Notes: a model not told the origin generated them from the letters alone. A stretch of DNA of 64,000 nucleotides from Bryobacteraceae bacterium (GCA_035293725.1 DATGMH010000092.1:24391-88390); one strand, 5' to 3'; shown: positions 12,101 to 36,950, numbered from the stretch's first letter. Program-made: numbers and translations.

Positions 12101-12406
12101 AATATCGGTCCCCTCTTCAAAGATGATGTAAACGTAGGAGTATCCGAAGTCCGAGAATCCGCGTACGTCCTTCACTTTTGGTGCGCCCAGCATCGCGGTA
12201 ACGAGCGGGTATGTGACTTGGTCCTCCATAATGTCGGGACTGCGATCCCACCGCGAATACACGATCACTTGGGTATCGCTCATATCGGGGAGCGCATCGA
12301 GCGGCACCGTCCGCATCGAGTACAGCCCTCCCATCAGGGCTGCCGCAATTGCAATGAAGACAATCATCTTGTTGCGACCTGCGAACTCAATGATGGCGTT
12401 GATCAT
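9143..12406 (-). CDS. cusA: CusA/CzcA-family heavy-metal efflux RND pump
   Basis: 1087 aa. The N-terminus ...VPLDALPDMSDTQVIVYS...RGFSDFGYSYVYIIFEEGTDIYWARSRTLEYL...LGPDATGIGWVFEYAL closely follows E. coli CusA. Confidence 0.9.
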   Translation of the reverse strand: MINAIIEFAGRNKMIVFIAIAAALMGGLYSMRTVPLDALPDMSDTQVIVYSRWDRSPDIMEDQVTYPLVTAMLGAPKVKDVRGFSDFGYSYVYIIFEEGTDIYWARSRTLEYLSNVLPRLPQGVKTELGPDATGIGWVFEYALIDTTGKQSLADLRSYQDWYLRYYLKSVPGVAEVAPLGGFVRQYQVNVDPNKLQSFNIPINKVVEAVRAGNNDVGGRLVEFSGAEYMVRGRGYAQSTEDIGKIVLAKSASGVPIRISDVGDVTLGPDIRRGVADWNGTGETVAGIVIMRQGENALQVIERVKQKLKDIEGGLPPGVKIVSAYDRSELILRSIDNLKQTLIEELIIVAIVIMIFLWHFPSAIIPIITIPVAVIISFIPMKMMGLTSNIMSLGGIAIAVGAMVDAAIVVVEQTHKKLEEWERTGRKQDYHRVVIDAVKEVGGPSFFALLVIAVAFLPVLTLEAQEGRLFKPLAYTKTFSMVIAALLAITLDPAMRLLFTHMKNYEFRPRWLARVTNAVLVGTIHSEETHPISKILIKLYAPICELALRWKWFVIAGAVALVVVTVPVFERLGSEFMPPLDEGSLLYMPSTLPGISVTKAQELMQVQDRIIKRFPEVSTVLGKAGRAETSTDPAPFSMMETVIVLKRETEWRKVDTWYSSWAPRWAKGIFRRFTPDHISTDQLVEEMNQALKIPGTSNAWTMPIKARVDMLTTGIRTPVGIKIYGADIKKIEDLGTQIEALLPKVQGTRSVFSERTSGGYFLDFKWNRDELARYGLSIDNAQDVVMSAIGGENVTTTIEGRERYGVNVRYMRDYRSDPTSLGRVLVPTMDGQTQVPLAQLAEIQVVSGPAMLRDENGMLNGYVYVDVAGRDIGSYVEEAKKVVRDKVKLPSGYSFAWSGQYEAMQRVREKLVVVLPLTMGLIIMLLYINTKSMTKTMIIILAVPFSAVGAVWFLHFLGYNMSIGVWVGLIALLGVDAEPGVFMMLYLDLAHDQAKAEGKLRSLGDLQAAIMHGAVKRIRPKFMTVATMFLGLVPIMWSVGTGADVMKRIAAPMIGGIFTSFLLELVVYPAIYEVWKWNFELKRELAHS

Positions 12407-13914: not shown

Positions 13915-13924
13915 ATCAATCGCC

Positions 13925-15175
13925 TCAGTCCGTCAGTGGCTGGCCGGTCATCTCTTCCAGACGGCTCAGCGCCAGCGCGTAATTGAGCGCCTCGTCGTAA
14001 TAATTCATTTCGTAATCGAGCACCGTCGTGAAGTTCGTGAGAACCGAAAGAAAGTCCACCGAGCCGGTTTCATACGTGCTTAAGGAGGACTCAAGCGCCA
14101 GATTCCCCTGCGGAACCACCGTCTGCGTATACAACTTCATGAGCTTGGCCGAGGCTTGCGCCAGCGTGAAATCCCCCTGGATTCGCGCATGGAGCGACTG
14201 ATCCGTGGCCTCGTACGTCCGCTTCGCCTGGGAGAGCATGCTCACCTGCTCGTTCACGCCGGCGCGCTGTTTCCGCCAATAGAAGAGCGGCACCTTGAAG
14301 CTCGCTTGGAACTGGTACATGGGTGGCATTCCACCCTGATTGAAATAGCCGCCGGAGAGCGTCATGTCCGGATAGTATTCCTTGCGGGCGGAATTCACTG
14401 CGAGTTCGGACCGCTCAATCATCTTCTGATCGCGCCGAAGCATTGGTGAGTTTTGGGCAGCCGAGGCATAGAGCTCTTCGAGGGTCGAAGAGAGTTCCTT
14501 CGGTTTCACGTCGTCGGGGCGGCCGACTGGAGTTCCCGGGCGGCGGTTCAAAATGCTGTCGATCTCAGCTTCGATGCTTGCGCGCTCCTGTTCGAGCTTC
14601 ACCAGGCGAGTTTCAAGAATGCTGGCTTGCGTCTGGGCCTTGAAGACATCCTGTTGCGCGGCTTTCCCAACGGAATAGCGGTCCTCAGTAACGCTCACCA
14701 GCTTGTTCAGGAGGTCGCGATTCCGTTTGAGGAGGTCCGAAGCGGCATAGGTGTATTGGAGCCGGTAATAGGCCTGCTTGAGCCTCGAAATGACGCTGAG
14801 TTGCACTGCCTGATACTGCTGGAAGGTGGCGTCAGCCTCTTTGGAGGCGATTTCCCCTCGCAACTTCAATTTTCCCGGATAAGGAATCTCTTGGGAGTAC
14901 ATCACGCCGATGTTCGCCGTTGGCTCAGTGCCCAGGCCAAAACCGGGCAGCGGCTTCCCTATGCTCGTGTAGCCGAGCGACACCATTGGGTCCGGCAGGC
15001 TGCTCTCCTGAGTTGGCTTCTGGCGGGCGGCTTCATAGCCCTTCTGGGCTGCGACGATTTCGGGGTTGTTCTTCATCGCCTCGCTGGTCAAGTCCCGCAG
15101 GCTTACTCGCGCTTCTGGCGTTTGTCCCACTGCGGGAATCGCGAGCACCAGTGCGATAAGGATTCGTCGTCTCAA
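13925..15175 (-). CDS. cusC: TolC-family outer-membrane efflux protein (CusC-like)
   Basis: 416 aa with a signal peptide and two OEP-type coiled-coil repeats. It is the first gene of the minus-strand cusCBA arrangement. Confidence 0.8.
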   Translation of the reverse strand: MRRRILIALVLAIPAVGQTPEARVSLRDLTSEAMKNNPEIVAAQKGYEAARQKPTQESSLPDPMVSLGYTSIGKPLPGFGLGTEPTANIGVMYSQEIPYPGKLKLRGEIASKEADATFQQYQAVQLSVISRLKQAYYRLQYTYAASDLLKRNRDLLNKLVSVTEDRYSVGKAAQQDVFKAQTQASILETRLVKLEQERASIEAEIDSILNRRPGTPVGRPDDVKPKELSSTLEELYASAAQNSPMLRRDQKMIERSELAVNSARKEYYPDMTLSGGYFNQGGMPPMYQFQASFKVPLFYWRKQRAGVNEQVSMLSQAKRTYEATDQSLHARIQGDFTLAQASAKLMKLYTQTVVPQGNLALESSLSTYETGSVDFLSVLTNFTTVLDYEMNYYDEALNYALALSRLEEMTGQPLTD

Positions 15176-15482
15176 TGCATCCTCTCTTCGGGGAGTTCCT
15201 CCCCGGTTAGCGCAATGTATGTTCCAAAGCGTTCAACATTCGCAATATCAGCACGTTGCGCGGTTTCGATGCTGTTCGAGATATCCAGGCTTCCTGATTT
15301 CTCTGCCGGACATCAGACAGGCGAAATGCCTTGCTGCCGTATTTGAGGCAGCGGATCAGAGTCGCGGTTTGGCGCTGGATCCCGATGTCTTTAGAACGCA
15401 AGATTTTAGGCTCTGGTTATCAGTTGGTTTGGCAGGTGCATTCTCCTGGTTTACATCGAGTGCGGATACTAATGGAGGTCTC

Positions 15483-16022
15483 ATGAGCGGGCGTAGACGA
15501 AGGCTAAAGATGACGTGGCGCCAAACGTGGCCGATCTGGCTCACGTTCGCACTTCTATTTGGATTGGGGGCATTTGGCGTTTGGTTCACCATTCCTGGCT
15601 CGCCGGCCGCCGCCAAAGTGCTGGCCCAAGGCGAAGACGTTAGACTCACTGGCGGTGACCTTCAGGCCGGCGAGCCGCGTGTTTTCGCGCTACCGCTGGC
15701 CTCAGGGGAGAAAACCGAGCTCTTCATCGAGCGCGGGGCCGACAGCAACATTACCGTGGTATTTGCGTCATGTCGCAAATGCTATCGATCAGGGCACTAC
15801 CGACAGGGGAACGAGATCTACTGCGGCCGATGTAACGAACCGATGCAGCGGCTTTCTCACGGCCAAGCGCCGGCTTCGGAGATCGACTGTACGCAAATCC
15901 CGATTCCATTCGAGAGAGTCGGCGACAACGTAGTAGTCCGGGCAAATGCCGTGCGCGATGCCTTCCGGCAGTGGTACGTGCCGACGATCTCAACAAACAG
16001 GCCCGAAGGTGGGCGGAAATGA
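15483..16022 (+). CDS. membrane-anchored zinc-ribbon protein (DUF2318-like), putative
   Basis: GGAGG sits 5 nt before ATG 15483. One TM segment (WPIWLTFALLFGLGAFGVWF) and CRKC-X14-CGRC. The longer 15066 start is antisense to cusC. Confidence 0.5.
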   Translation: MSGRRRRLKMTWRQTWPIWLTFALLFGLGAFGVWFTIPGSPAAAKVLAQGEDVRLTGGDLQAGEPRVFALPLASGEKTELFIERGADSNITVVFASCRKCYRSGHYRQGNEIYCGRCNEPMQRLSHGQAPASEIDCTQIPIPFERVGDNVVVRANAVRDAFRQWYVPTISTNRPEGGRK

Positions 16023-16050
16023 GCCGACTCGGTCCGTCGGCAAAACAGGG

Positions 16051-16974
16051 GTGAACAGTTTGAAGATCATCTTGCTCATTGCGGCGGCGGCGCTCAGCTC
16101 TGATGCGCAGCAATTGCTGTCTGGACCGGTCCGGGCCCCAGATAGCAGCGCGGTTCTTCGCGTGGATGCCAATCTCGTGCTCGTACCTGTAACGGTCACG
16201 AACAACCGGGGTGCGGTGGTACCGAACCTGGAGGCAAGCAATTTCATCCTGAGCGAGGAAAAACGGCCTCAGTCGATCGTATCGTTTTCGCACGAGACCG
16301 CACCGATTTCGCTGGGGATCATAGTGGATCTCAGTGGCAGTATGGCGTACAAGCTCGCGAAGGTACACGTGGCGCTCGCGGCCCTGTTGGACAGCCTGGA
16401 GCCTGAAGACGAGGAATTTCTTGTAACCTTCGCGGACACGGCAGACCTTCGACTGCCCTTCACCTCTGACCCTTCATCCATTCGCAGCGCGCTTTCGTTC
16501 GCGGCGGCTCGTGGCAGCACGGCGCTCTTCGATGCCGTCGCACTCGCCTTAAAGCAAATGCACGCGGCGAGGAATGGCCGGAAGGTCCTTTTCCTTATTT
16601 CTGATGGAGGGGACAACCACAGCCGGCTGACGGAACGGGAACTCCGCCGGATGCTTGACGAGGAGGATGTTCAGATCCACGCGATCGGCATCCACGACCA
16701 CATGGCGAGCCCGGAAGAATCCCGAGGGCCCTGGGTCCTTGAGGATCTTGCCCGAATGACGGGCGGAGAGCATCACATGGTCGAGAACATCGATGAGCTT
16801 CCGAAAATGACTGGGCAGATGAGCTTGGCGCTGCACGATCGGTATCTCCTTGGGTATAGGCCCGCGCCGCTTGGCGAGTCGGGGATGTTTCGGAGAATCG
16901 ACGTTAAGGTGGTGCAAGCAGCCGCTAGAGGTAAGGTTTACGTGTACGCCCGGCGTGGATACCGACTACCTTGA
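16051..16974 (+). CDS. VWA-domain protein (acidobacterial VWFA-related type)
   Basis: Signal peptide, then DLSGSM (MIDAS), ...STALFDAV... and LISDGGDNHS. GTG 16051 was chosen as the start because the signal peptide follows it. Confidence 0.75.
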   Translation: MNSLKIILLIAAAALSSDAQQLLSGPVRAPDSSAVLRVDANLVLVPVTVTNNRGAVVPNLEASNFILSEEKRPQSIVSFSHETAPISLGIIVDLSGSMAYKLAKVHVALAALLDSLEPEDEEFLVTFADTADLRLPFTSDPSSIRSALSFAAARGSTALFDAVALALKQMHAARNGRKVLFLISDGGDNHSRLTERELRRMLDEEDVQIHAIGIHDHMASPEESRGPWVLEDLARMTGGEHHMVENIDELPKMTGQMSLALHDRYLLGYRPAPLGESGMFRRIDVKVVQAAARGKVYVYARRGYRLP

Positions 16975-17265: not shown

Positions 17266-18060
17266 TCAATTCGCTACGCCAGTCGATGCGAAGACCCAAG
17301 CGTCTCGCTGTGTCATCTCGGGGATTGGCGGATCAATTCGTGTCGTGCCCAAAAGCTCCATCGCTGCCAGGACGGCCGGCACATAGCTTCTAGTCTCCGC
17401 TGGAAGCAGCCCGGCCGAACTGAGTTGCGAAAATGTTGTCGCACGCCCCTTCTCAAGGGCGGACTGCACCGCATTTTCACCGGCATTGTAGGCGGCGAGT
17501 GCGAGAGGCCAGCTCCCAAACCGGCCGTACAGATCTCGCAGGTAACGCGCCGCCGCCCGGGTGGCAGAGTCGAGCTGGACCCGCTCATCTTTGGCCGTGC
17601 TAACGGCCAGTCCATAACGGCGGGCCGTCTCCGGGATGAACTGCCAGAGTCCACGCGCTTGGCGAGGAGAGCGAGCAAGCGGCTGTGCGCCGCTTTCGAC
17701 CAGAACGACGGCAATCAGCTCTTTAGGCAAGCCCTCGGCTCCGAGGATCGATTCCAATGTTGGACGGAGCCGTTGCAGGCGGGCGAATGCCGCCGCGAAT
17801 TCGGCGTCGCGGCCACCCCAGTAGCGCTTGGCAAAACTCCTGAGATCCAACTCGCTATACAGCTTTTGCGGAGCTGGCAGGGTCTGCTGAACCGGCGCTG
17901 CCTCGGGAACTTCACGCGGACGGACTTGCTGGCGATCCAGCATTGCCGAGAGTTGGGTTTCAAACGATCGGTGGTACTGGGCGAACGGATCGTCGGCCAC
18001 GAGGAGTCCAGCGAACGAGCAAACTGTCAGGATTATCAGGATTATGCGGAATAGCCTCAT
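17266..18060 (-). CDS. lytic transglycosylase (SLT domain)
   Basis: Motifs ARGLWQFIPETARRYGL and LALAAYNAGENAV. Signal peptide runs from MRLFRIILIILTVCSFAG. Confidence 0.85.
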   Translation of the reverse strand: MRLFRIILIILTVCSFAGLLVADDPFAQYHRSFETQLSAMLDRQQVRPREVPEAAPVQQTLPAPQKLYSELDLRSFAKRYWGGRDAEFAAAFARLQRLRPTLESILGAEGLPKELIAVVLVESGAQPLARSPRQARGLWQFIPETARRYGLAVSTAKDERVQLDSATRAAARYLRDLYGRFGSWPLALAAYNAGENAVQSALEKGRATTFSQLSSAGLLPAETRSYVPAVLAAMELLGTTRIDPPIPEMTQRDAWVFASTGVAN

Positions 18061-18278
18061 GCGATAGGAGGAAACGCAAATGCTAATCCAAATGCAAGTT
18101 GAAGGAAACAAGAGCACTTTGATGTTCGAAATCGGCTTTCGCGGCGCAAAACCGCCATCAACAATTGCGAGTGCCTCATTTCAGGCAACGACCTGCTCGG
18201 CCACGCTGCGACGCTTCGATCAGCACGGAGTGGGCGCAATGTCCTACCATTAGCGGCTTACAGAGGCAATCGCGCGGC

Positions 18279-20132
18279 ATGAGGCAAAACGCATTCCGGA
18301 CAAGTCGGCCAGCAGTTGCGATCCGCTCGATTTACCTTCTTTTGCTAGTGGTAACACTTCCGGTGCTGGTCTGGAACGAACTGGTTCAGCAGGTTAACGC
18401 CAGTCTCAATGACATCTTCCTCTGGACGCGCGGTCAGATTCGATCGCAGGCTGTTGGTGATATCGCCCTCGTAGCCATAGACGACACTACCGCCGCACGG
18501 TATGGTCCTTTGCCCCTTCGCCGTTCCATCCTCGCAGACGGAATCAGTCGCATCGCATCTTTTGGACCGAGGGCGGTCGCTGTCGACCTGCTTTTGGGAG
18601 AACGCGGACGAACCGAAGATGACCGAGCCTTGGCCGATGCTCTTCAACTGTTGCCGAGTGCTGTCTTAAGTGCAGCACTCGGTAGCGATCCGCGCGCGAG
18701 TCACACCTGGATTCTTCCATTGCCAGACTTTGCGGGCCCCCATCTCGTCGCCCACGTTCATGTGGAGCCGGACGCCGATGGCAAGGTCAGATCGATCCCG
18801 CTACAGGAAGCCGACGGAGGAAGGCGGCTCTGGGCGCTCGGTCTGCAGGTTGTACGGGCGGCAACTCACGCGGACGCACCTTTGGAAAGAGCTGATAGTC
18901 TTGAACTCGGGCCGATCCGTATACCGACGACTGAATCTTCGAGACGGCTTATGCTGATCAACTACGCTGGACCGGAAGGGACGTTTCGTCGCATTCCGTT
19001 TTCAGCGTTGCTCGACCGCACAGCAGACTCCAGCGAATTCCGGGGCAAAATCGTATTTCTGGGCGTCACGGCACAAGGCAGCGGAGACCGCATCTTTACT
19101 CCTCTCTCCTCCCGCATCGGGATGAGCGGGATCGAAATTCATGCCAATGTGGCGCGCACGATTCTTGATCGAAGCTTCCTTACACCGCTGAGTGAGACCG
19201 GCGAATTCGTGGCCCTAATATTGATCTCCGGAATCGCCGTGCTCGGTATCGGCGCACTGCGCGGCATCCGTTTACAGGGAGCGCTTGCGACACTCGCGAT
19301 CCTGATTGTAGGGACGTGCTTCATTGCCCTCCGTTTCGGGTACGTGTTGCCAGTTGGAACTCTTCTCGCTGGGTTTATCGTTGCCGGCAGTTTCGTCGGC
19401 TTCGGTGAGTACGCAATCGTGACAGCCGCTCTCCACAAGGCCGAAAGACGGCAGCGTGAATACGCATCTCGTGTACAAGCCATCGCCCACGAGATCAAAA
19501 CGCCGTTAACGGCGATTCAGGGATCGAGTGAGATCATCTCCGATCAACATATACCGGAGGATCAGCGCGCGGAGATCGCGGGCATGATCCACAAGGAATC
19601 GAAGCGGCTTACTCAGATCATTCATACTTTCCTGGACGTGGAGCGTATGGCTGCTGGATCTCTCCCACTCGAAAAGCAGCCACTGGACATCGCTTCGCTC
19701 TGCGATGAGGTGTCGGAGCGCGCCCGCTTGTACGGCGCCCGCAAAAATATCACCGTCGCAGCCGAAGTTCCACACGTCACGGTGGCAGCCGACCGCGATC
19801 TGCTGTCCTTTGCGATCTACAATCTGCTGACCAATGCGGTCAAGTACAGCCCCAAGCGAACAACCGTCTCCCTGTCGGCTCACATGCAATCTGATGCCGT
19901 CCGCATTTCGGTGGTGGACCAGGGATATGGAATCGCACCCTCAGAACAGAAGAAGATCTTCGACCGTTTTTACCGGGTAAAACGGAGCCAGCCTAATAAT
20001 GAGGAGGGTACCGGCATTGGGCTCGCGCTGGTCAAGGAAATCGTTTCACAACATGGTGGATGGATCGAGGTAGATAGCCGGGAAGGCCACGGTTCCCGTT
20101 TCACCATCGTGCTGCCGAGCCAATCTTCATGA
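18279..20132 (+). CDS. CHASE2-domain sensor histidine kinase
   Basis: Extracytoplasmic part IALVAIDDTTAARYGPLPLRRSILADGISRIASFGPRAVAVDLLL, then TM segments, the H-box AIAHEIKTPL, and an HATPase_c domain (GTGIGLALVKEIV). Confidence 0.85.
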   Translation: MRQNAFRTSRPAVAIRSIYLLLLVVTLPVLVWNELVQQVNASLNDIFLWTRGQIRSQAVGDIALVAIDDTTAARYGPLPLRRSILADGISRIASFGPRAVAVDLLLGERGRTEDDRALADALQLLPSAVLSAALGSDPRASHTWILPLPDFAGPHLVAHVHVEPDADGKVRSIPLQEADGGRRLWALGLQVVRAATHADAPLERADSLELGPIRIPTTESSRRLMLINYAGPEGTFRRIPFSALLDRTADSSEFRGKIVFLGVTAQGSGDRIFTPLSSRIGMSGIEIHANVARTILDRSFLTPLSETGEFVALILISGIAVLGIGALRGIRLQGALATLAILIVGTCFIALRFGYVLPVGTLLAGFIVAGSFVGFGEYAIVTAALHKAERRQREYASRVQAIAHEIKTPLTAIQGSSEIISDQHIPEDQRAEIAGMIHKESKRLTQIIHTFLDVERMAAGSLPLEKQPLDIASLCDEVSERARLYGARKNITVAAEVPHVTVAADRDLLSFAIYNLLTNAVKYSPKRTTVSLSAHMQSDAVRISVVDQGYGIAPSEQKKIFDRFYRVKRSQPNNEEGTGIGLALVKEIVSQHGGWIEVDSREGHGSRFTIVLPSQSS

Positions 20133-21487
20133 GCAAACCACGCATTCTCGTGATTGATGATGAGGAGTCGATCACAAAGACGGTCTCTTCTTTTTTGCGC
20201 GCAAAGGGATACGATGTCACCGCCATCAATGATGGCGAAGACGCCCTTGATGCTGTCTCCCAAGGTACGTTCGGAATCGTTATCAGCGACATTTATGTCG
20301 ACCGAGTCACGGGTCTCGACATCCTGGAACGCTCCACGCGCGCTGGCGGAAAAGCAGCGGTAATCCTGATGACCGCCCGCGGCTCTGTTCGGACCACAGT
20401 CGAGGCCGAAATGGGCGGAGCGTTCGACTATATAGCGAAGCCTTTCGAGATGCGGACCCTCCTGTCGGTCGTTGAACGCGCGGACGCATTCTTATCTTGC
20501 GACGAATCGCCGGAGCTAGAGCACGACCAGTCCGAGGCATTCGGGAATATGGTTGGCTTCTCGCCGCCAATGGTGGAGGTATATAAAAAGATTGCTCGTT
20601 CGGCCAAATCGGATGACACCGTTCTCATTGTCGGGGAGACAGGCGTTGGCAAAGAACTTGTGGCCAAAGCAATTCACGAGCACAGCGCGCGTTCAAAGGC
20701 GCCATTTATACCCGTGGACTCCGGTGCCGTCACCGGGTCCCTCTGGGAGTCTGAAATATTTGGATCTCTCCGGGGCGCGTACACCGGCGCGGACCGCGAC
20801 CGCCAGGGAGTAATTGACAGCGCTCGCGGAGGATCGGTCTTTTTTGATGAGATCGGTGAGATCCCACTCGACTTCCAGCCAAAGCTGCTTCGCTTCCTGC
20901 AGGAAAAGGAATATCGACCACTTGGCTCGGGCATACCGAAGAAGGCCGATGTCCGGATTATTGCGGCGACGAATCGATCTCTGGACGCGATGGTCCGGGA
21001 GAACAAGTTTCGCGAGGACCTGTTCTATCGCCTGAATGTCCTCCGAATTGAAGTTCCACCCCTCCGGGAACGCCGATCTGACATTCCATTTCTCGTGAGG
21101 CGATTTCTGACTGAGGCTACCGACGCGGCCCGCAAGCGGATCTGGCTAGAACCCGGTGTGGAGCGGTTGCTGAACGAGTACGCCTGGCCTGGCAACGTTC
21201 GCCAGCTACGAAGCACGATTCAGCGGCTTGTCGCGCTCGGCGCCCCAGGGCCGGTGACGGAAGCAGCTCTTCGGCCGATTCTGACCGATCCACTGCCCGA
21301 TGCCGATGAGGAGCCGGCGAGTGAACTCGGCGAACTGGAACGCCGTCAGATCCTGCGTGTTCTCCAGGAGACGGGTGGGAACAAAACGAGGGCGGCGGAA
21401 ATTCTTGGCATTCAACGGCGAACGCTCTACAAGAAGCTCGCGCGCATCGAGCGGGAGCGAGACTCTGACAGCGAAGCCCCTTCGTAA
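20129..21487 (+). CDS. sigma-54-dependent response regulator (NtrC family)
   Basis: REC domain, GETGVGKE, GAYTGA (GAFTGA variant), and the C-terminal HTH NKTRAAEILGIQRRTLYKKL. Overlaps the kinase stop by 4 nt. Confidence 0.9.
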   Translation: MSKPRILVIDDEESITKTVSSFLRAKGYDVTAINDGEDALDAVSQGTFGIVISDIYVDRVTGLDILERSTRAGGKAAVILMTARGSVRTTVEAEMGGAFDYIAKPFEMRTLLSVVERADAFLSCDESPELEHDQSEAFGNMVGFSPPMVEVYKKIARSAKSDDTVLIVGETGVGKELVAKAIHEHSARSKAPFIPVDSGAVTGSLWESEIFGSLRGAYTGADRDRQGVIDSARGGSVFFDEIGEIPLDFQPKLLRFLQEKEYRPLGSGIPKKADVRIIAATNRSLDAMVRENKFREDLFYRLNVLRIEVPPLRERRSDIPFLVRRFLTEATDAARKRIWLEPGVERLLNEYAWPGNVRQLRSTIQRLVALGAPGPVTEAALRPILTDPLPDADEEPASELGELERRQILRVLQETGGNKTRAAEILGIQRRTLYKKLARIERERDSDSEAPS

Positions 21488-21530
21488 AACGCGCCTCACC
21501 ATCCGTCCGTGCTACAAACTGGCTTGCTAT

Positions 21531-21571
21531 GGCACAAGAGCCGTGCACGAAGGGCACATCTAGTGTGCCCT
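21531..21571. promoter_or_regulatory. candidate enhancer (UAS) for the sigma-54 activator; could also act as a terminator hairpin
   Basis: GGCACaagagccGTGCAc, then the perfect palindrome GGGCACA-tctag-TGTGCCC (21552-21570). The same palindrome core recurs at 23751-23769. Confidence 0.5.
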
Positions 21572-21725
21572 CGTTCCGTAGTGTTGTTCAGCAGGTCTCG
21601 TTTTCGTAGCCTCCGATCAGGGAGCTAGCCCCAGGACCTCGTCTGAACTGCGCCATATGACGCAAGACTGCCTGTCACCTCTGCCGAAAGATTGAATCCT
21701 TTGAGTGTAGAGCCCCGACATTTAT

Positions 21726-21741
21726 TGGCACGGCGATTGCT
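21726..21741 (+). promoter_or_regulatory. sigma-54 (-24/-12) promoter
   Basis: TGGCACggcgaTTGCT is an exact match to TGGCAC-N5-TTGC. It is followed by RBS AAGGA (21756-21760) and TTG 21767. Confidence 0.7.
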
Positions 21742-21766
21742 GAGTGTAAGAAAACAAGGATTTCGA

Positions 21767-22528
21767 TTGCGTCTCATCGGCACAGTGACGGGCGCCGTTA
21801 TCGGCATACTGACTTGGTATGCCGGGCCGTTGGCTGCTCAGGTGCCGCAAGGAGTTCAGGCTCGGGTCGTTACCGTAAACGGGACGCTGTCGGTAAGGCG
21901 TGCCGGTTTTCCGATCCGGGCGCTTGCCTTGAATGAGGCTGTTGGGACTGGCGACGAACTGATCACCGATGCGCGTTCCGAGGCGACCATCCAATCCGGT
22001 GATGGGAGCACCGTTCATATTTACCCGGACTCCCGCGTCATCTTCAATCGGCAGTCGTTCGGGATAGCGGACTTCCTGCACTTGTTTTTCGGTTCCATCA
22101 AAATGCACATCGAAAAGCTGGGGGGCCGCCCCAATCCACACAGCATGACTACGCCGACGGCGGTCATCGCGGTTCGGGGAACAACTTTCAGCGTTTTCGT
22201 GGACGACACCGACGCCACTCTTGTGGCTGTGGACGAGGGCCTGGTTGCAGTGGCAAATCGTAATAATCCCTCGAACGAGCTCCTGCTACGGCCAGGGCAG
22301 CGCACTTGGGTACGGACGAATCAGCCTCCACTGAGGGCCCAGGCATTTCGCGGCGCTTCCGAACATGCTGACATGATGCCGGGCGCGGGCGCGATGAAGG
22401 TCATGGCAGGGAATGCCAGCGGGATGTCGATGGGGGGAGCGATGGACGCCCGTTCAGGAAGCGCTCTTTCCGGCCATATGCCGGGCACGGGTGGTGGAAT
22501 GCCCGGCGCGGCAGGCCCTCACCACTAG
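21767..22528 (+). CDS. FecR-domain exported protein with a Met/Gly-rich C-terminal tail
   Basis: GDELITDARSEATIQSGDGSTVHIYPDSRVIF...TAVIAVRGTTFSV. The tail reads MMPGAGAMKVMAGNASGMSMGGAM...HMPGTGGGMPGAAGPHH. The start was moved downstream of the sigma-54 promoter. Confidence 0.7.
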   Translation: MRLIGTVTGAVIGILTWYAGPLAAQVPQGVQARVVTVNGTLSVRRAGFPIRALALNEAVGTGDELITDARSEATIQSGDGSTVHIYPDSRVIFNRQSFGIADFLHLFFGSIKMHIEKLGGRPNPHSMTTPTAVIAVRGTTFSVFVDDTDATLVAVDEGLVAVANRNNPSNELLLRPGQRTWVRTNQPPLRAQAFRGASEHADMMPGAGAMKVMAGNASGMSMGGAMDARSGSALSGHMPGTGGGMPGAAGPHH

Positions 22529-22534
22529 GACGTC

Positions 22535-23740
22535 ATGATACGGAATCTGACGAACCCGTTTATTCTCTTGGCAATTCCAATCGTCCTGTGTGCTCAGACT
22601 GCCGGGTTGCTTCAAACTGAAATCAACAGACTGGACACCCTGGCCGCGAACCCGGATCTAAAGCCTGTAGTCGTCGCGGCGATGGCTGACGCACTCGATG
22701 TACATCGTAATCATCTGCTTTTGCAGCGCAAGGACACCGGACAGAGTTTCGCCTCGATTTTCGTGTCGGACCTTCGTGCTCGGGGAATGAATGATGCCAA
22801 CATTCTCCAGAGTCTCAGAGAGGTTGACCGCCAAGTAGATCGACAGCTCAAGCACGATGGCGTTGGGAGTGCTTCTGCCGCGCGCCCGGTCCTGTTGCTG
22901 GGATCCAACGTGGACCACAGCTGGGCAGCGACGGTCTACTCGCTCGCGCCAGAAATCGGATTCGACTCAAGCCACGTGGCCGCCGCGATCGGAGTCCCTT
23001 TCTATCGCATTTCTAACTCGAGTCTGTCCGCCGGCGGCCTCGGCGATGTGTATGCTTCTGTCTTTCTACGCGGACGGAGTGGTCGATTTGATGTCGGCTC
23101 GACAGTCACTGTAGGTGCACCCAGCGGCGATCGCAACAAGGGTCTGGGTGCCGGGAAGGTCACTGTAGATGCGACAGGAACGATCTCCCGACGGTTTGGG
23201 TTCGCCAAACCGGCGGTATCGGCAGGATTTGCGAATTCCGTGTTCAACAACGTCGGCTACCAGCGGCCGTATGTGACCGCTGGGAATGCGGCGCACTTCG
23301 CCGGTGGAGTCGATTTTGTATTGCCCCGGGGGTTGAGTGTGGGGGTCGGGGGCTTTGGTTTGGTGCCCGTGGGCCAACAGGTCGTTTACAGCCAGGCAGT
23401 CCCACCGGGCTCACAATCCGGCGGCCAACCTAACATGCCAAGCGGGACCGGGATGATGCCGGGCGACGGGATGGGTACAGGGATGCCTGGTGGCGGCGGA
23501 ATGACAACGCCATCGCCGTCCTCTCCGTCTATGCCGTTCTATATGGCCGCGCAGCAAAGCGTGGTCAACGCGAGCGAGCTTCGCGACTACGGGCCTTCTC
23601 TGTCCCTCTCGATCCCGCTACACGCTGGGCTCTCGCTGAATGCCACAATCACGAGAAGCCTGCCATTTGACCTCACAATTACTCGCGTAGGGATCGCAGT
23701 CGATGTTGCACATTTCCTTTTCCCCGGCAAACACTTCTAA
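22535..23740 (+). CDS. exported protein, possible outer-membrane beta-barrel (MetA-pathway/transporter-like), with a Met/Gly/Pro-rich insert
   Basis: Signal peptide MIRNLTNPFILLAIPIVLCAQTAG and alternating beta-strand-like segments. The insert reads NMPSGTGMMPGDGMGTGMPGGGGMTTPSPSSPSMP. The family assignment is tentative. Confidence 0.45.
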   Translation: MIRNLTNPFILLAIPIVLCAQTAGLLQTEINRLDTLAANPDLKPVVVAAMADALDVHRNHLLLQRKDTGQSFASIFVSDLRARGMNDANILQSLREVDRQVDRQLKHDGVGSASAARPVLLLGSNVDHSWAATVYSLAPEIGFDSSHVAAAIGVPFYRISNSSLSAGGLGDVYASVFLRGRSGRFDVGSTVTVGAPSGDRNKGLGAGKVTVDATGTISRRFGFAKPAVSAGFANSVFNNVGYQRPYVTAGNAAHFAGGVDFVLPRGLSVGVGGFGLVPVGQQVVYSQAVPPGSQSGGQPNMPSGTGMMPGDGMGTGMPGGGGMTTPSPSSPSMPFYMAAQQSVVNASELRDYGPSLSLSIPLHAGLSLNATITRSLPFDLTITRVGIAVDVAHFLFPGKHF

Positions 23741-23750
23741 CGTATTCGTT

Positions 23751-23769
23751 GGGCACACCGACTGTGCCC
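23751..23769. promoter_or_regulatory. candidate enhancer (UAS) palindrome
   Basis: GGGCACA-ccgac-TGTGCCC, 73 nt upstream of the -24 element. The half-sites are the same as at 21552-21570. Confidence 0.55.
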
Positions 23770-23840
23770 TCCTCGCATCGGCAGCCGCCGCGCGGGCATT
23801 CGAACCACTGAAAATATTCAAGGCAGTCTTCGGACCGCTG

Positions 23841-23856
23841 CGGCACGCCAATTGCG
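23841..23856 (+). promoter_or_regulatory. sigma-54 (-24/-12) promoter
   Basis: cGGCACgccaaTTGCg with GG/GC spacing of 12. RBS GAGGT and ATG 23879 follow. Confidence 0.65.
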
Positions 23857-23878
23857 TAATAGGACATCGAGGTTTGAA

Positions 23879-25921
23879 ATGAGAACTCTTTCCGCAGTCG
23901 CACTCGTTAGCATTTGGGGCATCGTTACCGCATCCCAAGCCGTTGCTCAGATGTCAGTGGTCAACGGAGCATCGTTCGACCCGGCCCAGCCGATCGCACC
24001 CGGCTCGTTTGCCACCGTGTTCGGGCAGAATCTCTGTTCCCAGACGATGGCTGGAAACTGGATCGCGCCTGGCCAACTCCCAACCACCCTGGGCGGTTGT
24101 TCGGTCAACGTGAATGGCACTGCAGCCATGATGCAGTACGTCTCGCCGGGACAGATGAACTTCATCATGCCGCCTGGGACGGGCTCCGGCCAGGCGACGG
24201 TGACGGTCAACAATGGATCGCAAATGATGACCGGAACGATCACGATGGGTGCCGCGGGGCCGGGTATGTTTGCCGTGAACGGCATGGGAATGGGCGAAGG
24301 CGCGATGTTGAACGCCGGCATGTGGCAAATGGGCCCCTTCAGTACGACTACGAATGGCCAGCCGACCTATGTCGCGCTTTACGCCACCGGCTTGGATCTG
24401 TCGGTCCAACCGACGGTGACGATTGGAGGCATGCCCGTGGACGTGATGTGGTTTGGGAATGCACCCGATTATGTCGGACTACAACAGATCAACATTTCAT
24501 TGCCTTCGGGAATGGCGGGCGTCGGACGCGTGCCCGTGATGGTGACCTCCAATGGGCAGAACAGCAACGTCACCTTTATGCACGTTCTGCCTACGACGGC
24601 GATGATGCAGAACGCACCCGGGTGGGGTCAGGGCATGATGGTCGGTGAGAACATGCCTCGCGGGCATGAGATGAGTTATATGGCGTTCAACGTCGCCAGC
24701 AATACCGCCTTGGTGACCGATGAAAATGATGACGTGGTGCGCGTCATCTCGATAACATCAAATACCACTACGGCGACCATAACGCTGCCGAGCGGCTCAC
24801 AGGCGCACGCAATCGCTGTGAATGCGGCCGGCAATCTCGCCGCAGTGACCTTGAGTGCAAAGGCTTCGATCGCGATCATTGACCTCACCCAAAACAAGGT
24901 GAAGTCGGTTGTCGGCACTGGCTATTATCCGAGCCGCGTGGTGTTTTCGGGATCGAACATCCTGGTGACGAACAGCGCTAGCGGAACTGTCTCAGTCATT
25001 GACAGCAGCAGCGGTACAACAACCCAAACTGTAAATGTCGGACTCGGGGCAAGTGGAATTGCTGTCGCGGGGAATACGGCGGTTGTAGCGAACATGCAGG
25101 CTGCTTTGGTCTCGATCGTCAATCTCACAAACTACCGCGTGTCTACCGTGAGCCTGCCGGCTGGATCTCGTCCACACGAAGTTGCCATATCCTCGCAAGG
25201 GAATAAAGCGATCGTCACGACACCGATGTCGAATGCATTCTTGATCCTCGACTTGGGCACGAAGGCCATCACGCAGGTCGGCACGAGCACCTGGAGCGGA
25301 ATGGGTCCCGGCGCCGTGGCGGTGAACGGCAACACAGCATACATTGCGAATCAAATGACCGCAAGCGTCACGGTCGCGGATCTGGCTTCCGGCACGGTCG
25401 TAAAGGCATTCCCCGTCGATCCCGGCCCGATGGCGCTCGCACTGAACCCGGCGAAGAACCAGTTGATCGTTTTGGCAGAAGGCACGGGGACGCTCGACAT
25501 TGTTGATCTGGCGAGCTATGGGATTACCGCCAGGATCGACGCGGGGAGCACAGAGCGGCAGGGCCAGTTTACGATGCCGCTCGTTTCCACCGTCTCGCCC
25601 GCCAGCGCGGCTCCAGGTAGCAGCTTCACCTTGACGATCACAGGTTCCGGGTTCCAGGGTGTGCAAGGCATCGAGTTCACTTTGACAGGCACTGGCGTCG
25701 GCGGCGGAATGATGGGGGGTGGAATGGGCGGCGGAATGGGGCAGGAGGACGCGAACATCAAAGTGTCGAACGTTCAGGTGAATTCCACTGGAACCCAAAT
25801 CACCGCGTCTGTCCAACTCCTCGCTGGGGCGGCCTCTGGTACCCGCCAAATCCGGCTCGAAACCAACTACGGTGAAATCATGGGGATGATGACGAATTCC
25901 CTCTTCACTGTGACGAAATAA
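23879..25921 (+). CDS. exported Met-rich protein: TIGR03437-like Ig-fold N-terminal region + YVTN-type beta-propeller repeats + C-terminal Ig-like domain
   Basis: SVVNGASFDPAQPIAPGSFATVFGQNL...LGGCSVNVNG...YVSPGQMNF and GNAPDYVGLQQINISLP, with repeated ..A.V.N..S.TVSVID.. units. The tract GVGGGMMGGGMGGGMGQED is present. I hand-counted ~41 Met, 28 of them in the first ~270 residues. Confidence 0.7.
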   Translation: MRTLSAVALVSIWGIVTASQAVAQMSVVNGASFDPAQPIAPGSFATVFGQNLCSQTMAGNWIAPGQLPTTLGGCSVNVNGTAAMMQYVSPGQMNFIMPPGTGSGQATVTVNNGSQMMTGTITMGAAGPGMFAVNGMGMGEGAMLNAGMWQMGPFSTTTNGQPTYVALYATGLDLSVQPTVTIGGMPVDVMWFGNAPDYVGLQQINISLPSGMAGVGRVPVMVTSNGQNSNVTFMHVLPTTAMMQNAPGWGQGMMVGENMPRGHEMSYMAFNVASNTALVTDENDDVVRVISITSNTTTATITLPSGSQAHAIAVNAAGNLAAVTLSAKASIAIIDLTQNKVKSVVGTGYYPSRVVFSGSNILVTNSASGTVSVIDSSSGTTTQTVNVGLGASGIAVAGNTAVVANMQAALVSIVNLTNYRVSTVSLPAGSRPHEVAISSQGNKAIVTTPMSNAFLILDLGTKAITQVGTSTWSGMGPGAVAVNGNTAYIANQMTASVTVADLASGTVVKAFPVDPGPMALALNPAKNQLIVLAEGTGTLDIVDLASYGITARIDAGSTERQGQFTMPLVSTVSPASAAPGSSFTLTITGSGFQGVQGIEFTLTGTGVGGGMMGGGMGGGMGQEDANIKVSNVQVNSTGTQITASVQLLAGAASGTRQIRLETNYGEIMGMMTNSLFTVTK

Positions 25922-25928
25922 AGTGCTC

Positions 25929-25966
25929 GGGCGGTGCGCTACGAAACGCACCGCCCTTCTTGTGTT
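25929..25966 (+). terminator. rho-independent terminator
   Basis: GGGCGGTGCG-ctacgaaa-CGCACCGCCC followed by TTCTTGTGTT. Confidence 0.75.
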
Positions 25967-27146: not shown

Positions 27147-29678
27147 TCAGAGCTGCACCTTCCTCAGCCTCAGCGCATTTGAGATAACGGAAACCGAACT
27201 AAACGTCATTGCCGCGCTCGCAATCATCGGGCTGAGGACCAGGCCGAAGAAGGGGTAGAGAATTCCAGCCGCGATCGGTACGCCGATCGCATTGTAGACG
27301 AACGCGAAAAACAAGTTCTGCCTTATGTTCTTCATCGTGGCCTGACTGAGTCGCCGCGCACGCGCGACACCCCGCAGATCCCCACTGATCAGCGTGACGC
27401 CGGCGCTTTCCATTGCGACGTCGGTTCCGGTACCCATCGCGATTCCGACGTCCGCCTCCGCAAGTGCGGGAGCGTCATTTACGCCGTCGCCCGCCATTGC
27501 CACCTTGCGACCTGCAGCTTTGAGATTCCGAATCACCTCCAGCTTTTGTTCTGGGAGCACTTCCGCCTTCACGTCGTCAATGCTCAGCTTTCGAGCGACG
27601 GCCTCCGCGGTCCGACGATTATCGCCTGTTAGCATCGTAATGCGGACTCCTGCCCGATGAAGGAGATCGATGGCCTCTTGTGTCGACGCCTTTATTGGAT
27701 CAGCAACACCCAGCAGTCCAGATAATAGGCTATCTACGGCAACGAACATAACCGTCTGGCCCTCTGACCGCAGGCGCTCGGCCTCGGGTTCGAGGGCCGC
27801 TATGCTGATCCCCAGTGATTGCATCAATGCTGAATTCCCGGCTGCGACACTGTGCCCATCTACGACACCGGTTACGCCTTTACCGGTGATCGACCGAAAC
27901 TCAGTGACTGATGAAAGAGTGGCCCCCTTCTGCTCGGCGGCCTCCACGATTGCCGAAGCGAGCGGGTGTTCGCTGACCCGCTCAAGGCTTGCCACCTGTT
28001 GTACTACCTTCGGTTCCTCGAAACCCGGCACCACTTTGACCGTCACCAGTCGCGGTTTCCCCTCGGTAAGCGTCCCCGTCTTATCAACGACAACCGTGTT
28101 GACCTTTTCGAGTGTCTCCAGCGCCTCAGCGTTTCGGACTAGAACCCCGGCCTGCGCCCCGCGACCAGTACCGACCATGATCGACATGGGTGTCGCGAGC
28201 CCCAAAGCGCAGGGACAGGCGATGATCAACACAGCGACGGCATTGACTAGGGCGTGAGCCATCTTCGGCTCCGGTCCGACGAGCGCCCATCCGATGAAGG
28301 TCGCTACCGCGATCAGCACGACTGCCGGCACGAACCAGCCCGAAACTCGATCTGCCAGACGTTGAATCGGAGCTCTCGTCCGTTGAGCTTCGCTGACCAT
28401 GCGCACGATTTGAGAAAGCATTGTGTCCGAGCCGACGCGCTCCGCTCTGAAAACGAAAGCCCCAGTGGCATTGACGGTCCCGCCGGTCACCTTGGAGCCA
28501 GCCGATTTCTCAACGGGGATCGGCTCTCCCGTGATCATCGATTCATCAACTGAACTCTCGCCTTCCAGAACCTCGCCATCGACTGGCACTTTCTCGCCCG
28601 GACGGACACGGATTCTGTCCCCGATTACGATCTGCTCGACGGGAACATCTTGCTCGACCCCCTCTCTTCGAATGACACGTGCTGTTTTCGGAGCAAGGCC
28701 GAGCAGCGCTTTGATTGCACTCGATGTCCGGCTGCGCGCACGCAGTTCCAAAACCTGCCCCAGCAGCACGAGCGTTGTTATGACGGCCGCCGGCTCGAAG
28801 TACACCGCGATCTGCCCGCCCATGTTCCGGAATGACGGTGGAATCGCGCCCGGAAATAGCAGCGCGAATACGCTGTAAAGGTATGCCGCGCCAGTACCGA
28901 GCCCGATTAGCGTAAACATGTTCAAGCTTCCATTGCGGACGGACGTCCAGGCGCGTTGGAAAAAGGGCCAGCCTCCCCAGAGGACGACCGGGGTTGCCAG
29001 AGCGAATTGGGCCCACTGGGAAGTTCGCATTCCGACGGCGTGAAGCAGCGGGTGACCCGGCATCAACTCCGAAATCATGAAGGACAGAATCGGGACGGTT
29101 AGCACCACGCCGGTCCAAAAACGACGCGTCATGTCCACGAGTTCCGGATTCACTTCCTCACCCGTGACCTGACGTGGTTCCAGCGCCATGCCGCAGATCG
29201 GGCAAGCGCCTGGCTCGCTCCGGACAATTTCCGGATGCATCGGGCAGGTGTACTCAACCGCTGCCGAAACGGAAGGTGCGGCGGGAGCGGAGGCCGCCGA
29301 GGTGATGTATTTGTCCGGGTTTGATTGAAATTTCTGCAAGCAACTCTGGCTGCAGAAAAAGTACTGACGCCCATTACGCTCTACCGAGCCCGCCGCGTCC
29401 TCCGCAGTTACGTCCATCCCACACACAGGGTCGCGATGAGCAACCGCAACGGGTTCCTCGTGACGGATGAATCTACTGGGATTCGCCTTAAAGCGATCCT
29501 CGCACGCCGGCGAACAGAAATAGTACGTTTGCCCTTCAAATTCGATCCTTCCCGATGCGAACTCGGGCGCGAACCGCATTCCACAGACCGGGTCCGTCAC
29601 CTCCGTAGCCGTCGTAGTGGTCACCTGTTCACCCCTACGTTCCCAAGTTGGTTTTGTTGCGTCTTCTTCGTGTTTCAT
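27147..29678 (-). CDS. copA: copper-translocating P1B-type ATPase with two N-terminal YHS/TRASH domains and a CxxC-type heavy-metal-binding domain
   Basis: Motifs [17 protein letters not shown] and GDGVNDAP. The N-terminus has DPVCGM...[14 protein letters not shown]...YFFCSQSC and [35 protein letters not shown] precedes ATG 29678. Confidence 0.9.
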
Positions 29679-29682
29679 GGCT

Positions 29683-29826
29683 TCACCTATTGCTTTGGAC
29701 TGGCGTCGAACTTCTTCTTGCACACCGGGAGCAGAAGTAGTAGGTCTTTTCTCGGTGCTCGCTTTTTCCTGCCGCGTTCAGCGGGTCCACCTGCATGCCA
29801 CAAACTGGATCTCTTTCCATATGCAT
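29683..29826 (-). CDS. small YHS/TRASH-domain protein (47 codons as sequenced; C-terminus apparently frameshifted)
   Basis: Below the ORF-track size cutoff. AGGAG RBS, then [33 protein letters not shown]... The alternative frame continues ..[13 protein letters not shown], which restores the canonical C-X3-C and KKF tail. Confidence 0.6.
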
Positions 29827-29900: not shown

Positions 29901-30281
29901 CTAGCGGGAGTGTTTATAGATCAACTCCAGCAGCTCGTCATACATGGCGTTGGCCTGATCTGTCGGCCCGTCGGTGACCGCTTTTCTGACGCAATGCCTC
30001 AGGTGGTTGCGCATCAATTCTCGCCCAACCGTCCGCAATGCCTCCTGGGCTGCCGATATCTGAATCATGATGTCGGGACAGTAGCGGTCTTCTTTGATCA
30101 TGTTTTGTAGGCCGCGAACTTGGCCCTCAAGCCGCCGCAATCGCCGGAGGTTGGCAGACTTAGTCTCGGGATCAACCGCGACCGCCTTTCTACCCGCGCC
30201 ATTGGGCTCGGCAATGGAGGCGCACCCACACGCGGCCGGTACCGCTGCCTCGTGGGGTATTCCTGGCTTCGTCTTTCCCAT
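29901..30281 (-). CDS. csoR: CsoR/RcnR-family copper-sensing repressor
   Basis: LRRLRRLEGQVRGLQNMIKEDRYCPDIMIQISAAQEALRTVGRELMRNHLRHCV (DUF156 core with the C..H..C ligand pattern). The start is uncertain because the operator abuts ATG 30281. Confidence 0.85.
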   Translation of the reverse strand: MGKTKPGIPHEAAVPAACGCASIAEPNGAGRKAVAVDPETKSANLRRLRRLEGQVRGLQNMIKEDRYCPDIMIQISAAQEALRTVGRELMRNHLRHCVRKAVTDGPTDQANAMYDELLELIYKHSR

Positions 30282-36770: not shown

Positions 36771-36950
36771 TGGCATCCCGCAACGCGCTGAAAATAAACC
36801 GTGCCACAACGGTGGATCACGGGAGGTGTCTGGGCTTCACGTGGGCCGAATTTGTCGTATTCGCTTTTCCTTCGCCTCGGCGCTACAATAGCATACAGGG
36901 CATTCTGAAGCCTCGCTCGCAAGGCGTGTTTCCGGAACAAAGAAGCCACC

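Follow-up and report, generated by a model that had tools for sequence, protein, structure and literature searches.

A putative CHASE2-linked, sigma-54-dependent envelope-stress regulon, most probably for copper or silver, in a Bryobacteraceae bacterium

The stretch of DNA considered here, referred to throughout as the window, is 64 kb in length, comes from a Bryobacteraceae bacterium (GCA_035293725.1, DATGMH010000092.1:24391-88390), and harbors a compact module of five genes. These encode a CHASE2 sensor histidine kinase, an NtrC-type sigma-54 activator, a secreted FecR-domain protein (fecR), a predicted outer-membrane barrel (the barrel gene), and a secreted protein with an Ig-like domain and a YVTN propeller (the YVTN gene). 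We regard it as fairly likely that the module represents a two-component regulon for envelope stress that depends on sigma-54 and most probably responds to Cu(I)/Ag(I), and in which the kinase and activator would control two promoters that are each preceded by the same palindrome. Gene context and sequence composition point to copper as the signal, and the methionine- and glycine-rich (Met/Gly) tracts of the target proteins would be the parts that bind the metal. The features of the module and of its surroundings are collected in Table 1.

The palindrome is significant by itself, whereas the promoter motif is significant only through its placement. GGGCACA-N5-TGTGCCC is found exactly at two sites in the window and nowhere else, with 0.00 matches expected from 100 shuffles, and these are the two positions at which the original prediction had seen one and the same inverted repeat. 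The second copy lies 11 nt past the stop codon of the barrel gene. Relatives of the module were collected by contig look-ups and by one scan of GTDB species genomes, which gave 27 loci, 25 of them non-redundant (given L numbers below), from Bryobacterales and other Acidobacteriota metagenome-assembled genomes (MAGs). Including the window, this comparative set amounts to 415 kb. It was searched for the palindrome with a 4- or 5-base spacer and with 0, up to 1, or up to 2 mismatches, and first-order Markov simulations supplied the expected counts. The numbers of sites found were 17, 35, and 43, respectively, compared with expectations of 0.0, 0.1, and 5.3. At up to 2 mismatches all sites are intergenic bar one look-alike in coding sequence, and the intergenic copies sit upstream of fecR (15 loci), of the gene that follows the barrel gene (10), of a multicopper oxidase gene (8), and of a gene for a 251-aa secreted protein (9). 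The spacer upstream of fecR is either N4 or N5, and counterparts of palindrome 2, with differing spacers, are present in L001, L002, L003, L005, L006, L008, L017, L021, and L024. This conservation of the half-sites, with spacers that are free to vary, is the signature of a protein-binding dyad, and the protein that binds it is probably the activator encoded alongside.

Two lesser elements resemble the palindrome. The first, with 3 mismatches to the consensus, is located 22 nt, centre to centre, from palindrome 1, is partly conserved in L001, and may be a second dimer site. The second is the coding look-alike GGGCAGAATCTCTGTTCCC at 24023-24041, which has two mismatches, falls inside the reading frame of the YVTN gene, and is also found in orthologues. 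Its conservation most likely reflects the encoded protein and not regulator binding.

Two matches to TGGCAC-N5-TTGC, at 21726 and 23841, had been proposed as sigma-54 promoters placed before a ribosome-binding site (RBS) and start codon, and both positions were confirmed, with the qualification that the second begins with C. Their GGCAC-N5-TTGC cores, at 21727-21740 and 23842-23855, are the sole exact matches in the window, and 0.87 would be expected from the shuffles. The motif gains significance because both copies are on the coding strand, are intergenic, lie 156 and 72 nt downstream of a palindrome, are followed after 27 and 24 nt by RBS-bearing start codons, and are conserved in relatives. 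The start signals are AAGGA-N6-TTG at 21767, for fecR, and GAGG-N5-ATG at 23879, for the YVTN gene, the start of which had been placed at 23880 in the original prediction and is corrected here. Both sites have GG and GC 10 nt apart with a gene downstream on the same strand, which is how sigma-54 promoters are defined, and transcription would start near 21752 and 23867. No rpoN gene is present in the window. A search for sigma-70-like promoters between 18000 and 26500 found 0, against 2.7 expected.

The same pairing extends to the relatives. A correctly oriented GG-N10-GC element, with up to 2 mismatches, comes after 29 of the 42 intergenic palindromes, usually at a distance of 51-77 nt (mode 61-63), and at 156-168 nt in the fecR promoters of the window, L002, and L010. 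An alignment of 32 promoters gives the consensus T-GG-CAC-N5-T-TGC, with the T before GC present in all 32. At the position of promoter 2, GG-N10-GC is kept in ten of ten loci, mostly around 25-30 nt before an ATG, and the flanks drift. Altogether, palindrome and promoter pairs recur upstream of orthologues in about 20 related loci. The original prediction had one activator serving two sigma-54 promoters through a shared palindrome, and had named a lack of conservation in orthologous loci as grounds for abandoning this view; the elements are conserved, and the view is strengthened.

Two further elements are associated with these promoters. Between palindrome 1 and promoter 1 there is a conserved block, recognized by alignment, in which TGTCACC and TTGAATC are invariant in six loci (window, L001, L002, L003, L005, and L006), and which L003 keeps despite the loss of its sigma-54 promoter. 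The block was considered as an integration host factor site and rejected by eye, as it does not fit WATCAANNNNTTR. In L012 (5878), L015 (2164), L020 (993), and L023 (5897), where the oxidase gene is divergent from the kinase gene, a second -24/-12-like element, TGGYAY-N5-RATGC, is directed toward the kinase and lies 2 nt past the palindrome. This could be an occluded autoregulatory promoter or simply an extended binding site.

The regulatory genes themselves are adjacent, with the start of the activator gene overlapping the kinase stop by 4 nt. Domains were called throughout with Pfam and NCBIfam profiles. In the kinase, Pfam recognizes CHASE2 (165.6 bits, residues 26-321), HisKA (53.5 bits), and HATPase_c (98.5 bits), and hydrophobic peaks are found near residues 13, 309, 335, and 356. 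The protein has the make-up of a CHASE2 sensor histidine kinase, namely an extracytoplasmic CHASE2 domain flanked by transmembrane helices together with HisKA and HATPase_c. The activator matches Response_reg (78.4 bits), Sigma54_activat (207.2 bits), AAA_lid_14 (66.8 bits), and HTH_8 (52.4 bits), all over cut-off, and has the receiver (REC), AAA+, and Fis-type helix-turn-helix (HTH) architecture of NtrC-family enhancer-binding response regulators. Its translation contains the Walker A motif GETGVGKE and a GAYTGA loop, which is an F-to-Y variant of the GAFTGA-type loop that contacts sigma-54. Domains and translation are therefore in agreement with the kinase and GAYTGA-containing activator originally described. 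The activator falls below the curated NCBIfam cut-off for every named equivalog, including NtrC, AtoC, and ZraR.

The predicted regulon is larger than the window shows, with a multicopper oxidase, a Met-rich protein of 251 aa, and small proteins rich in Met, Gly, and His as further members. Gene order in the related loci was mapped by tblastn. The order kinase, activator, FecR-domain gene, and barrel gene is seen in about 18 of the 25, with the YVTN gene next after the barrel gene in 8. In L001, L002, and L008 the YVTN gene is directly followed by a gene for a three-domain multicopper oxidase; in L009, L012, L015, L018, L020, L021, L023, and L025 the oxidase gene is divergent from the kinase gene. 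Like the CueO-type cuprous oxidases, the enzyme of L001 has a twin-arginine signal together with inserts that read GMGMMGGM and MGGGMMGGGM. The gene for the 251-aa secreted protein is nearby in 11 loci (for example, L001 15117-15872) and has its own palindrome and promoter; the product carries AQMGGGMMGGG at its mature N-terminus, followed by a beta-rich body with GxDGTLY motifs, and has no Pfam family. In L024 (11330-11900), L021 (11316 onward), and L003 (11363-11680), the slot after the barrel gene is occupied not by the YVTN gene but by genes for small secreted Met/Gly/His-rich proteins, such as GGHGGSGHGSQSMGGMRGMGGSHGRMGDMGGM in L024, under the same enhancer and promoter.

All of these products share a similar composition. 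Met/Gly tracts are present in most orthologues of all target products, and these have, in sequence, the clustered methionines that mark the class of exported Cu(I)/Ag(I) binders. In the window, the translations contain the tracts that had been quoted for all three proteins, and the signal peptides attributed to them are likewise apparent, judged by eye, as LAA-Q, LCA-Q, and AVA-Q motifs after hydrophobic cores. The FecR tail is around 17% Met by our own count. Among 22 orthologues this tail is Met/Gly-rich in most, is mostly His-terminated, and is weak or absent in L017 and L022. The family of the FecR-domain protein comprises 239 clusters named only as 'FecR family protein'. The 680-aa YVTN protein matches TIGR03437 (142 bits) and TIGR02276 as well as Pfam TIG and YNCE, and its Met/Gly insert, which precedes the TIG domain, is conserved in 6 of 7 orthologues. 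The profile searches that had been suggested for FecR, TIGR03437, and TIGR02276 were thus all positive. Sequence searches of the PDB with the FecR-domain protein and with the CHASE2 domain returned nothing useful.

Table 1. Positions of the module and associated features in the window (a dot marks features without a strand).
Feature	Position	Strand	Basis or remark
Second histidine kinase and sigma-54 activator pair	4953-7213	+	Second activator 39% identical to the first
NosL-like gene beside the CusCBA-like operon	7219-7728	-	
Resistance-nodulation-division (RND) CusCBA-like operon with HMBD domain	9143-15175	-	
Sensor histidine kinase, periplasmic CHASE2 between transmembrane helices, HisKA, HATPase_c	18279-20132	+	Pfam
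NtrC-type sigma-54 activator (REC, AAA+, HTH_8)	20129-21487	+	Pfam
Degenerate second palindrome, TGGCACAagagcCGTGCAC	21530-21548	.	3 mismatches to consensus
Putative enhancer palindrome 1, GGGCACA-N5-TGTGCCC, GGGCACAtctagTGTGCCC	21552-21570	.	Exact match
Conserved block CTGTCACC-N11-ATTGAATC, between enhancer 1 and promoter 1	21672-21698	.	Alignment
Predicted sigma-54 promoter 1, TGGCAC-N5-TTGC, TGGCACggcgaTTGC	21726-21740	+	Exact, 15/15 positions
Secreted FecR-domain protein, Met/Gly-rich C-terminal tail ending PHH	21767-22528	+	Pfam FecR, 48.1 bits
Predicted outer-membrane protein with signal peptide, helical domain in the periplasm, 12-strand barrel, disordered loop, and C-terminal Phe	22535-23740	+	AlphaFold2/Foldseek
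Putative enhancer palindrome 2, GGGCACA-N5-TGTGCCC, GGGCACAccgacTGTGCCC	23751-23769	.	Exact match
Predicted sigma-54 promoter 2, cGGCAC-N5-TTGC, cGGCACgccaaTTGC	23841-23855	+	14/15 positions
Secreted 680-aa protein: TIGR03437 Ig-like, Met-rich linker, YVTN propeller, C-terminal TIG preceded by GGGMMGGGMGGGMG	23879-25921	+	NCBIfam, Pfam
Strong intrinsic terminator ending the third transcription unit	25929-25956	+	10-bp stem, 9 G-C pairs, then TTCTTGTGTT
P1B ATPase with YHS and HMBD	27147-29723	-	
CsoR-like repressor gene	29901-30281	-	

The surroundings of the module are also those of a metal-resistance locus. As had been stated, it lies between cusCBA and csoR-copA, represented by an RND operon on one side and by a CsoR-like gene and a P1B ATPase on the other, and the metal island also holds an FtrD-like gene, DUF302, and DUF4396. 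An oxidase, CopA, or RND gene is near the module in most of the long related loci.

From these components a circuit can be proposed. The membrane-bound kinase would read a periplasmic signal via CHASE2, probably with the secreted FecR-domain protein as a partner. The Met/His-rich tail of this partner would make up for the lack of a metal site in CHASE2 and so report periplasmic Cu(I). The kinase would then phosphorylate the NtrC-type activator, which, bound to GGGCACA-N4/5-TGTGCCC and using ATP, would open sigma-54 RNA polymerase at -24/-12 promoters 50-170 nt downstream. Two units would be fired in the window, fecR with the barrel gene (21767-23740) and the YVTN gene (23879-25921), and in relatives the same site would bring in the Tat-exported CueO-like multicopper oxidase, the 251-aa Met-rich secreted protein, and the small Met/Gly/His-rich proteins. 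Collectively these products would place many weak thioether sites for Cu(I) in the periplasm and outer membrane, from which captured Cu(I) could be passed to the oxidase and to the neighboring Cus and CopA exporters. Since fecR is itself a target, the circuit would contain a feedback loop.

The proposed role of the FecR-domain protein draws on gene pairs described elsewhere. CHASE2 and FecR genes are paired in Burkholderiales, Pseudomonas, and Campylobacterota (PMC5192318, PMC9239204), and because of this documented pairing the FecR-domain protein probably takes part in signalling with the kinase and is not just an effector. In the Burkholderia BiofilmReg operon, in Pseudomonas aeruginosa, and in the adenylate cyclase clusters of Campylobacterota, a gene for a CHASE2 sensor adjoins one for a FecR-domain protein that is secreted or located in the outer membrane, an arrangement suggestive of a common pathway (PMC5192318, PMC9239204). 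These systems differ from the present one in that they employ OmpR/CreB-type regulators or cyclase outputs and LysM-FecR proteins, and have no assigned signal (PMC5192318, PMC9239204), nor do they have sigma-54, Met-rich tails, or a link to metal genes. Given a CHASE2 domain with no Met-rich tract of its own, and FecR genes that travel with CHASE2 sensors, a FecR co-sensor is the most economical model.

Several observations weigh against a copper-responsive sigma-54 regulon. The CHASE2 domain of the kinase shows no Met-rich tract or evident metal motif. Within it H159, H161, M282, and H288 are kept across 16 orthologues, the motifs around them presumably resemble ones common to CHASE2 domains in general, and the idea of a metal motif was dropped with only these few conserved His and Met residues present. 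Met-rich tracts as oxidant sinks are also conceivable. The oxidase and 251-aa genes are absent from the 64-kb window, so that the copper link of this particular copy relies on orthology and on neighboring genes. A single strong palindrome accompanies each promoter, although it is usual for NtrC-type activators to bind at two sites or more. Promoter 2 carries C in place of T at its first position, and its orthologues are weak, with 5-9 of 10 consensus positions. In the wider superfamily of the barrel the equivalent loop is not Met-rich, as detailed below, and the 25 related loci all come from MAGs.

The strongest competing explanation retains the circuit and changes the signal, which would be either general envelope or oxidative stress (hypochlorous acid or peroxide), with the Met-rich proteins as sacrificial sinks, or Zn, Cd, or Hg in the manner of ZraPSR. 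The sensor domain without a metal motif would suit this explanation, as would the scores of the activator, which against ZraR and AtoC are nearly equal to that against NtrC, all below cut-off. A hint of a cell-wall context is provided by the gene for an SLT transglycosylase beside the kinase in the window, L001, and L008. What makes such a signal unlikely is the identity of the targets and neighbors. Copper exporters flank the module, and methionines combined with a terminal His are a composition typical of Cu(I) sites (PMC11494321). Moreover, the CueO-like oxidase with the same MGGGMMGGGM inserts is under the same palindrome and promoter as a direct target in 8 loci, and is in the operon in 3. 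This last observation gives indirect support to the Cu/Ag envelope module of the original prediction.

A second alternative concerns what the products do, and centers on the barrel. The barrel gene begins 6 nt past fecR and encodes a protein of 401 aa, for which no Pfam or NCBIfam profile, including PF05275 and PF13557, gives a match at E 0.01 or better. The AlphaFold2 model (predicted local distance difference test score of 74) contains a disordered Met/Gly/Pro loop of 48 residues (292-339), which would face outward on standard topology. Foldseek returns the amyloid-subunit exporter FapF as the top match (5o68, E 6e-11, TM-score 0.69 on the target and 0.46 on the query), followed by the autotransporter EstA, a COG4313 channel (4rl8, E 7e-7), and NanC. 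The protein is thus modeled as a 12-strand FapF-like outer-membrane channel. The possible outer-membrane beta-barrel of the original prediction is upheld in this respect, while the family suggested for it, PF13557, is not matched. Membership of PF13557 or CopB was rejected, there being neither a sequence match nor a Pfam family in nine barrel-only HMMER relatives. The immediate family forms 81 clusters at 90% identity, whose few source-named members are mostly MAGs of Bryobacteraceae or other Acidobacteriota, and its alignment conserves the tract GGMMPGGxMGPGMG. A HMMER search of 1.84 billion representatives found around 20 full-length relatives and a wider, unannotated barrel-only superfamily, in which the equivalent loop is long and rich in Gly/Ser/Gln, and Met enrichment is therefore specific to the regulon.

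With a fold of this kind, the barrel might be neither a metal binder nor a porin but a secretion channel that exports the disordered Met/Gly-rich FecR, YVTN, and 251-aa proteins to form a surface or extracellular copper sponge. The match to FapF extends to an N-terminal helical periplasmic region before the 12-strand barrel, the short gap to fecR links the two genes translationally, and the closest solved relative of the YVTN propeller is an S-layer protein, that of Methanosarcina mazei (1l0q). However, the TM-score is just 0.46 on the query and small-molecule channels (COG4313 and NanC) match too, no Fap-like partner genes are present, the supposed cargo proteins have folded domains, and barrel-only relatives are widespread without Met-rich partners, so that we consider a secretion module improbable. 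FapF of the Pseudomonas amyloid system (PDB 5o65, 5o67, and 5o68) resembles the model of the present protein in having a 12-strand barrel preceded by periplasmic helices, and differs from this protein in that identity is 10-13%, there is no sequence-family match, and no fap operon is found here. The 48-residue Met/Gly/Pro loop is also something that FapF is not known to have. A bolder combination, in which the Met/His tail of FecR is the actual copper receptor that signals to CHASE2 and the FapF-like barrel exports the Met/Gly proteins as a copper-trapping surface layer, strikes us as rather unlikely. If true, it would for the first time assign a signal to CHASE2, a domain that is widespread but has no known ligand, and would provide a general FecR co-sensor mechanism.

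Much less probable still is that the motifs are not regulatory, the palindromes being terminators or repeats and the -24/-12 matches being due to chance or to coding sequence that starts at an upstream TTG (21692). Two exact promoter cores are indeed not significant alone, and both palindromes of the window come after stop codons. Yet neither palindrome is followed by a T-run, neither was flagged in the terminator scan, and the palindromes of 8 loci sit between divergent gene starts and so cannot be terminators, an identity that was accordingly ruled out. Read from TTG 21692/21701, the frame stays open in the window and L001, which have the same 66-nt distance, and is broken in L002, where the distance is 67 nt. 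Distant loci have an RBS and an ATG downstream of the fecR promoter, as in L009 (TGGCGCTCAGATTGC...GGAGGGATTTGAGATG), which makes the promoter non-coding, and with the one-base shift in L002 this eliminates the notion that promoter 1 is inside a longer fecR frame. The 35 palindromes, where 0.1 would be expected, also speak for a regulatory element. Finally, FecIRA-type iron signalling is suggested by the Pfam FecR domain and by the JGI name of homologues, 'ferric-dicitrate binding protein FerR', and is scarcely credible, as the protein here consists just of a cleavable signal peptide, the FecR domain, and a Met-rich tail in place of a cytoplasmic anti-sigma domain and transmembrane helix, the regulator is of the sigma-54 type, and the genes scanned with Pfam from 15.5 to 30.3 kb, like the gene tables of L001-L003, include neither an extracytoplasmic function sigma factor nor a TonB-dependent receptor.

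A copper-responsive sigma-54 regulon would have, by analogy, its closest functional counterpart in the CorSR system of Myxococcus xanthus, with ZraPSR of Escherichia coli also among the closest. ZraPSR, found in E. coli and Salmonella, is Zn-responsive, and in it a kinase and an NtrC-type activator act through a sigma-54 promoter to produce a periplasmic accessory protein. This protein, ZraP, exerts feedback on the sensor, as is proposed here for the FecR-domain protein. The present system is not ZraSR as defined by profile, since the activator reaches 337.9 bits with the ZraR profile (cut-off 760), and the kinase scores 121.1 against ZraS (cut-off 479) through its catalytic core only, has a different sensor domain, and has no ZraP-like gene adjacent.

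CorSR is a sigma-54-dependent, copper-responsive two-component system associated with the curA operon of M. xanthus, and its regulator is a sigma-54 enhancer-binding protein with REC, Sigma54_activat, and HTH_8 (PMC3707914). Its cluster is also similar in containing a multicopper oxidase, a beta-propeller lipoprotein, the P1B ATPase CopA, and several predicted sigma-54 promoters (PMC3707914). In domain make-up, CorS combines a signal peptide, a single transmembrane helix, and HAMP and is without CHASE2; the present kinase contains CHASE2 but not HAMP. The curA operon, from another phylum, has no FecR-domain protein and no barrel, and Met/Gly-rich secreted proteins are not described for it.

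The CueO and PcoA oxidases and the binders of the CusF, CusB, and PcoB type are similar in being exported proteins with flexible Met-rich segments that are encoded beside copper efflux genes, and in CueO the Met-rich domains have been experimentally tied to Cu+ recruitment (PMC11494321). The scaffolds here, which are FecR, a FapF-like barrel, and Ig with YVTN and TIG, are in contrast not known copper proteins, and the barrel has no CopB/PcoB Pfam match. Control in those systems lies with CueR, CusRS, or PcoRS and does not involve sigma-54. The regulators of CusRS, CopRS, and PcoRS are OmpR-type, whereas the one here is NtrC-type, and the heavy-metal sensor kinase profile TIGR01386 matches only the kinase core of the present sensor, with 150.4 bits (cut-off 292.55).

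The logic of the proposed regulon is therefore familiar, in that there are precedents both for sigma-54-dependent metal-stress systems (ZraPSR and CorSR) and for Met-rich Cu(I) binders. What appears new is the type of sensor, a CHASE2 kinase paired with a FecR-domain protein, together with the putative enhancer site GGGCACA-N4/5-TGTGCCC, which predicts a whole regulon from sequence alone, and a set of uncharacterized families in which unrelated scaffolds bear a common Met/Gly motif (FapF-like barrel, 251-aa protein, and Ig-YVTN-TIG). No full-text literature linking CHASE2 with copper or with sigma-54 was found, and a search on Acidobacteria with sigma-54, copper, and oxidase returned nothing relevant. 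The module offers a first candidate signal for the CHASE2 sensor domain. If copper were confirmed, it would provide a tractable entry to CHASE2 sensing and to the co-travel of CHASE2 with FecR-domain genes, and would stand as the main copper-defence circuit of the Bryobacterales, an abundant soil lineage.

A number of minor observations concern the DNA around the module. On the minus strand at 15212-15226, 37 nt upstream of the cusC-like start, there is a one-mismatch -24/-12 match, TGGAAC-N5-TTGC (TGGAACatacaTTGC), from which the CusCBA-like efflux pump may also be sigma-54-dependent, and in L011 a paralogous activator adjoins the cusCBA genes. A sigma-54 promoter for cusC was set aside, as the L011 region is not alignable and no dyad is nearby. 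Directly upstream of the kinase gene are genes for an FtrD-like, membrane-bound Cys-rich protein and a VWA-domain protein (15528-16974, plus strand) and for the SLT lytic transglycosylase (17266-18117, minus strand). The VWA and SLT neighbors are also present in L001, and SLT in L008. IS21 and IS66 elements lie beside the module in L002 and L003, which suggests a location of the metal cluster in DNA that is mobile or variable. Shortly after the metal island of the window, at 33425-39797 on the plus strand, N6_Mtase, Eco57I, and Type ISP C-terminal domains mark two large neighboring genes as encoding predicted Type IIG/ISP restriction-modification enzymes.

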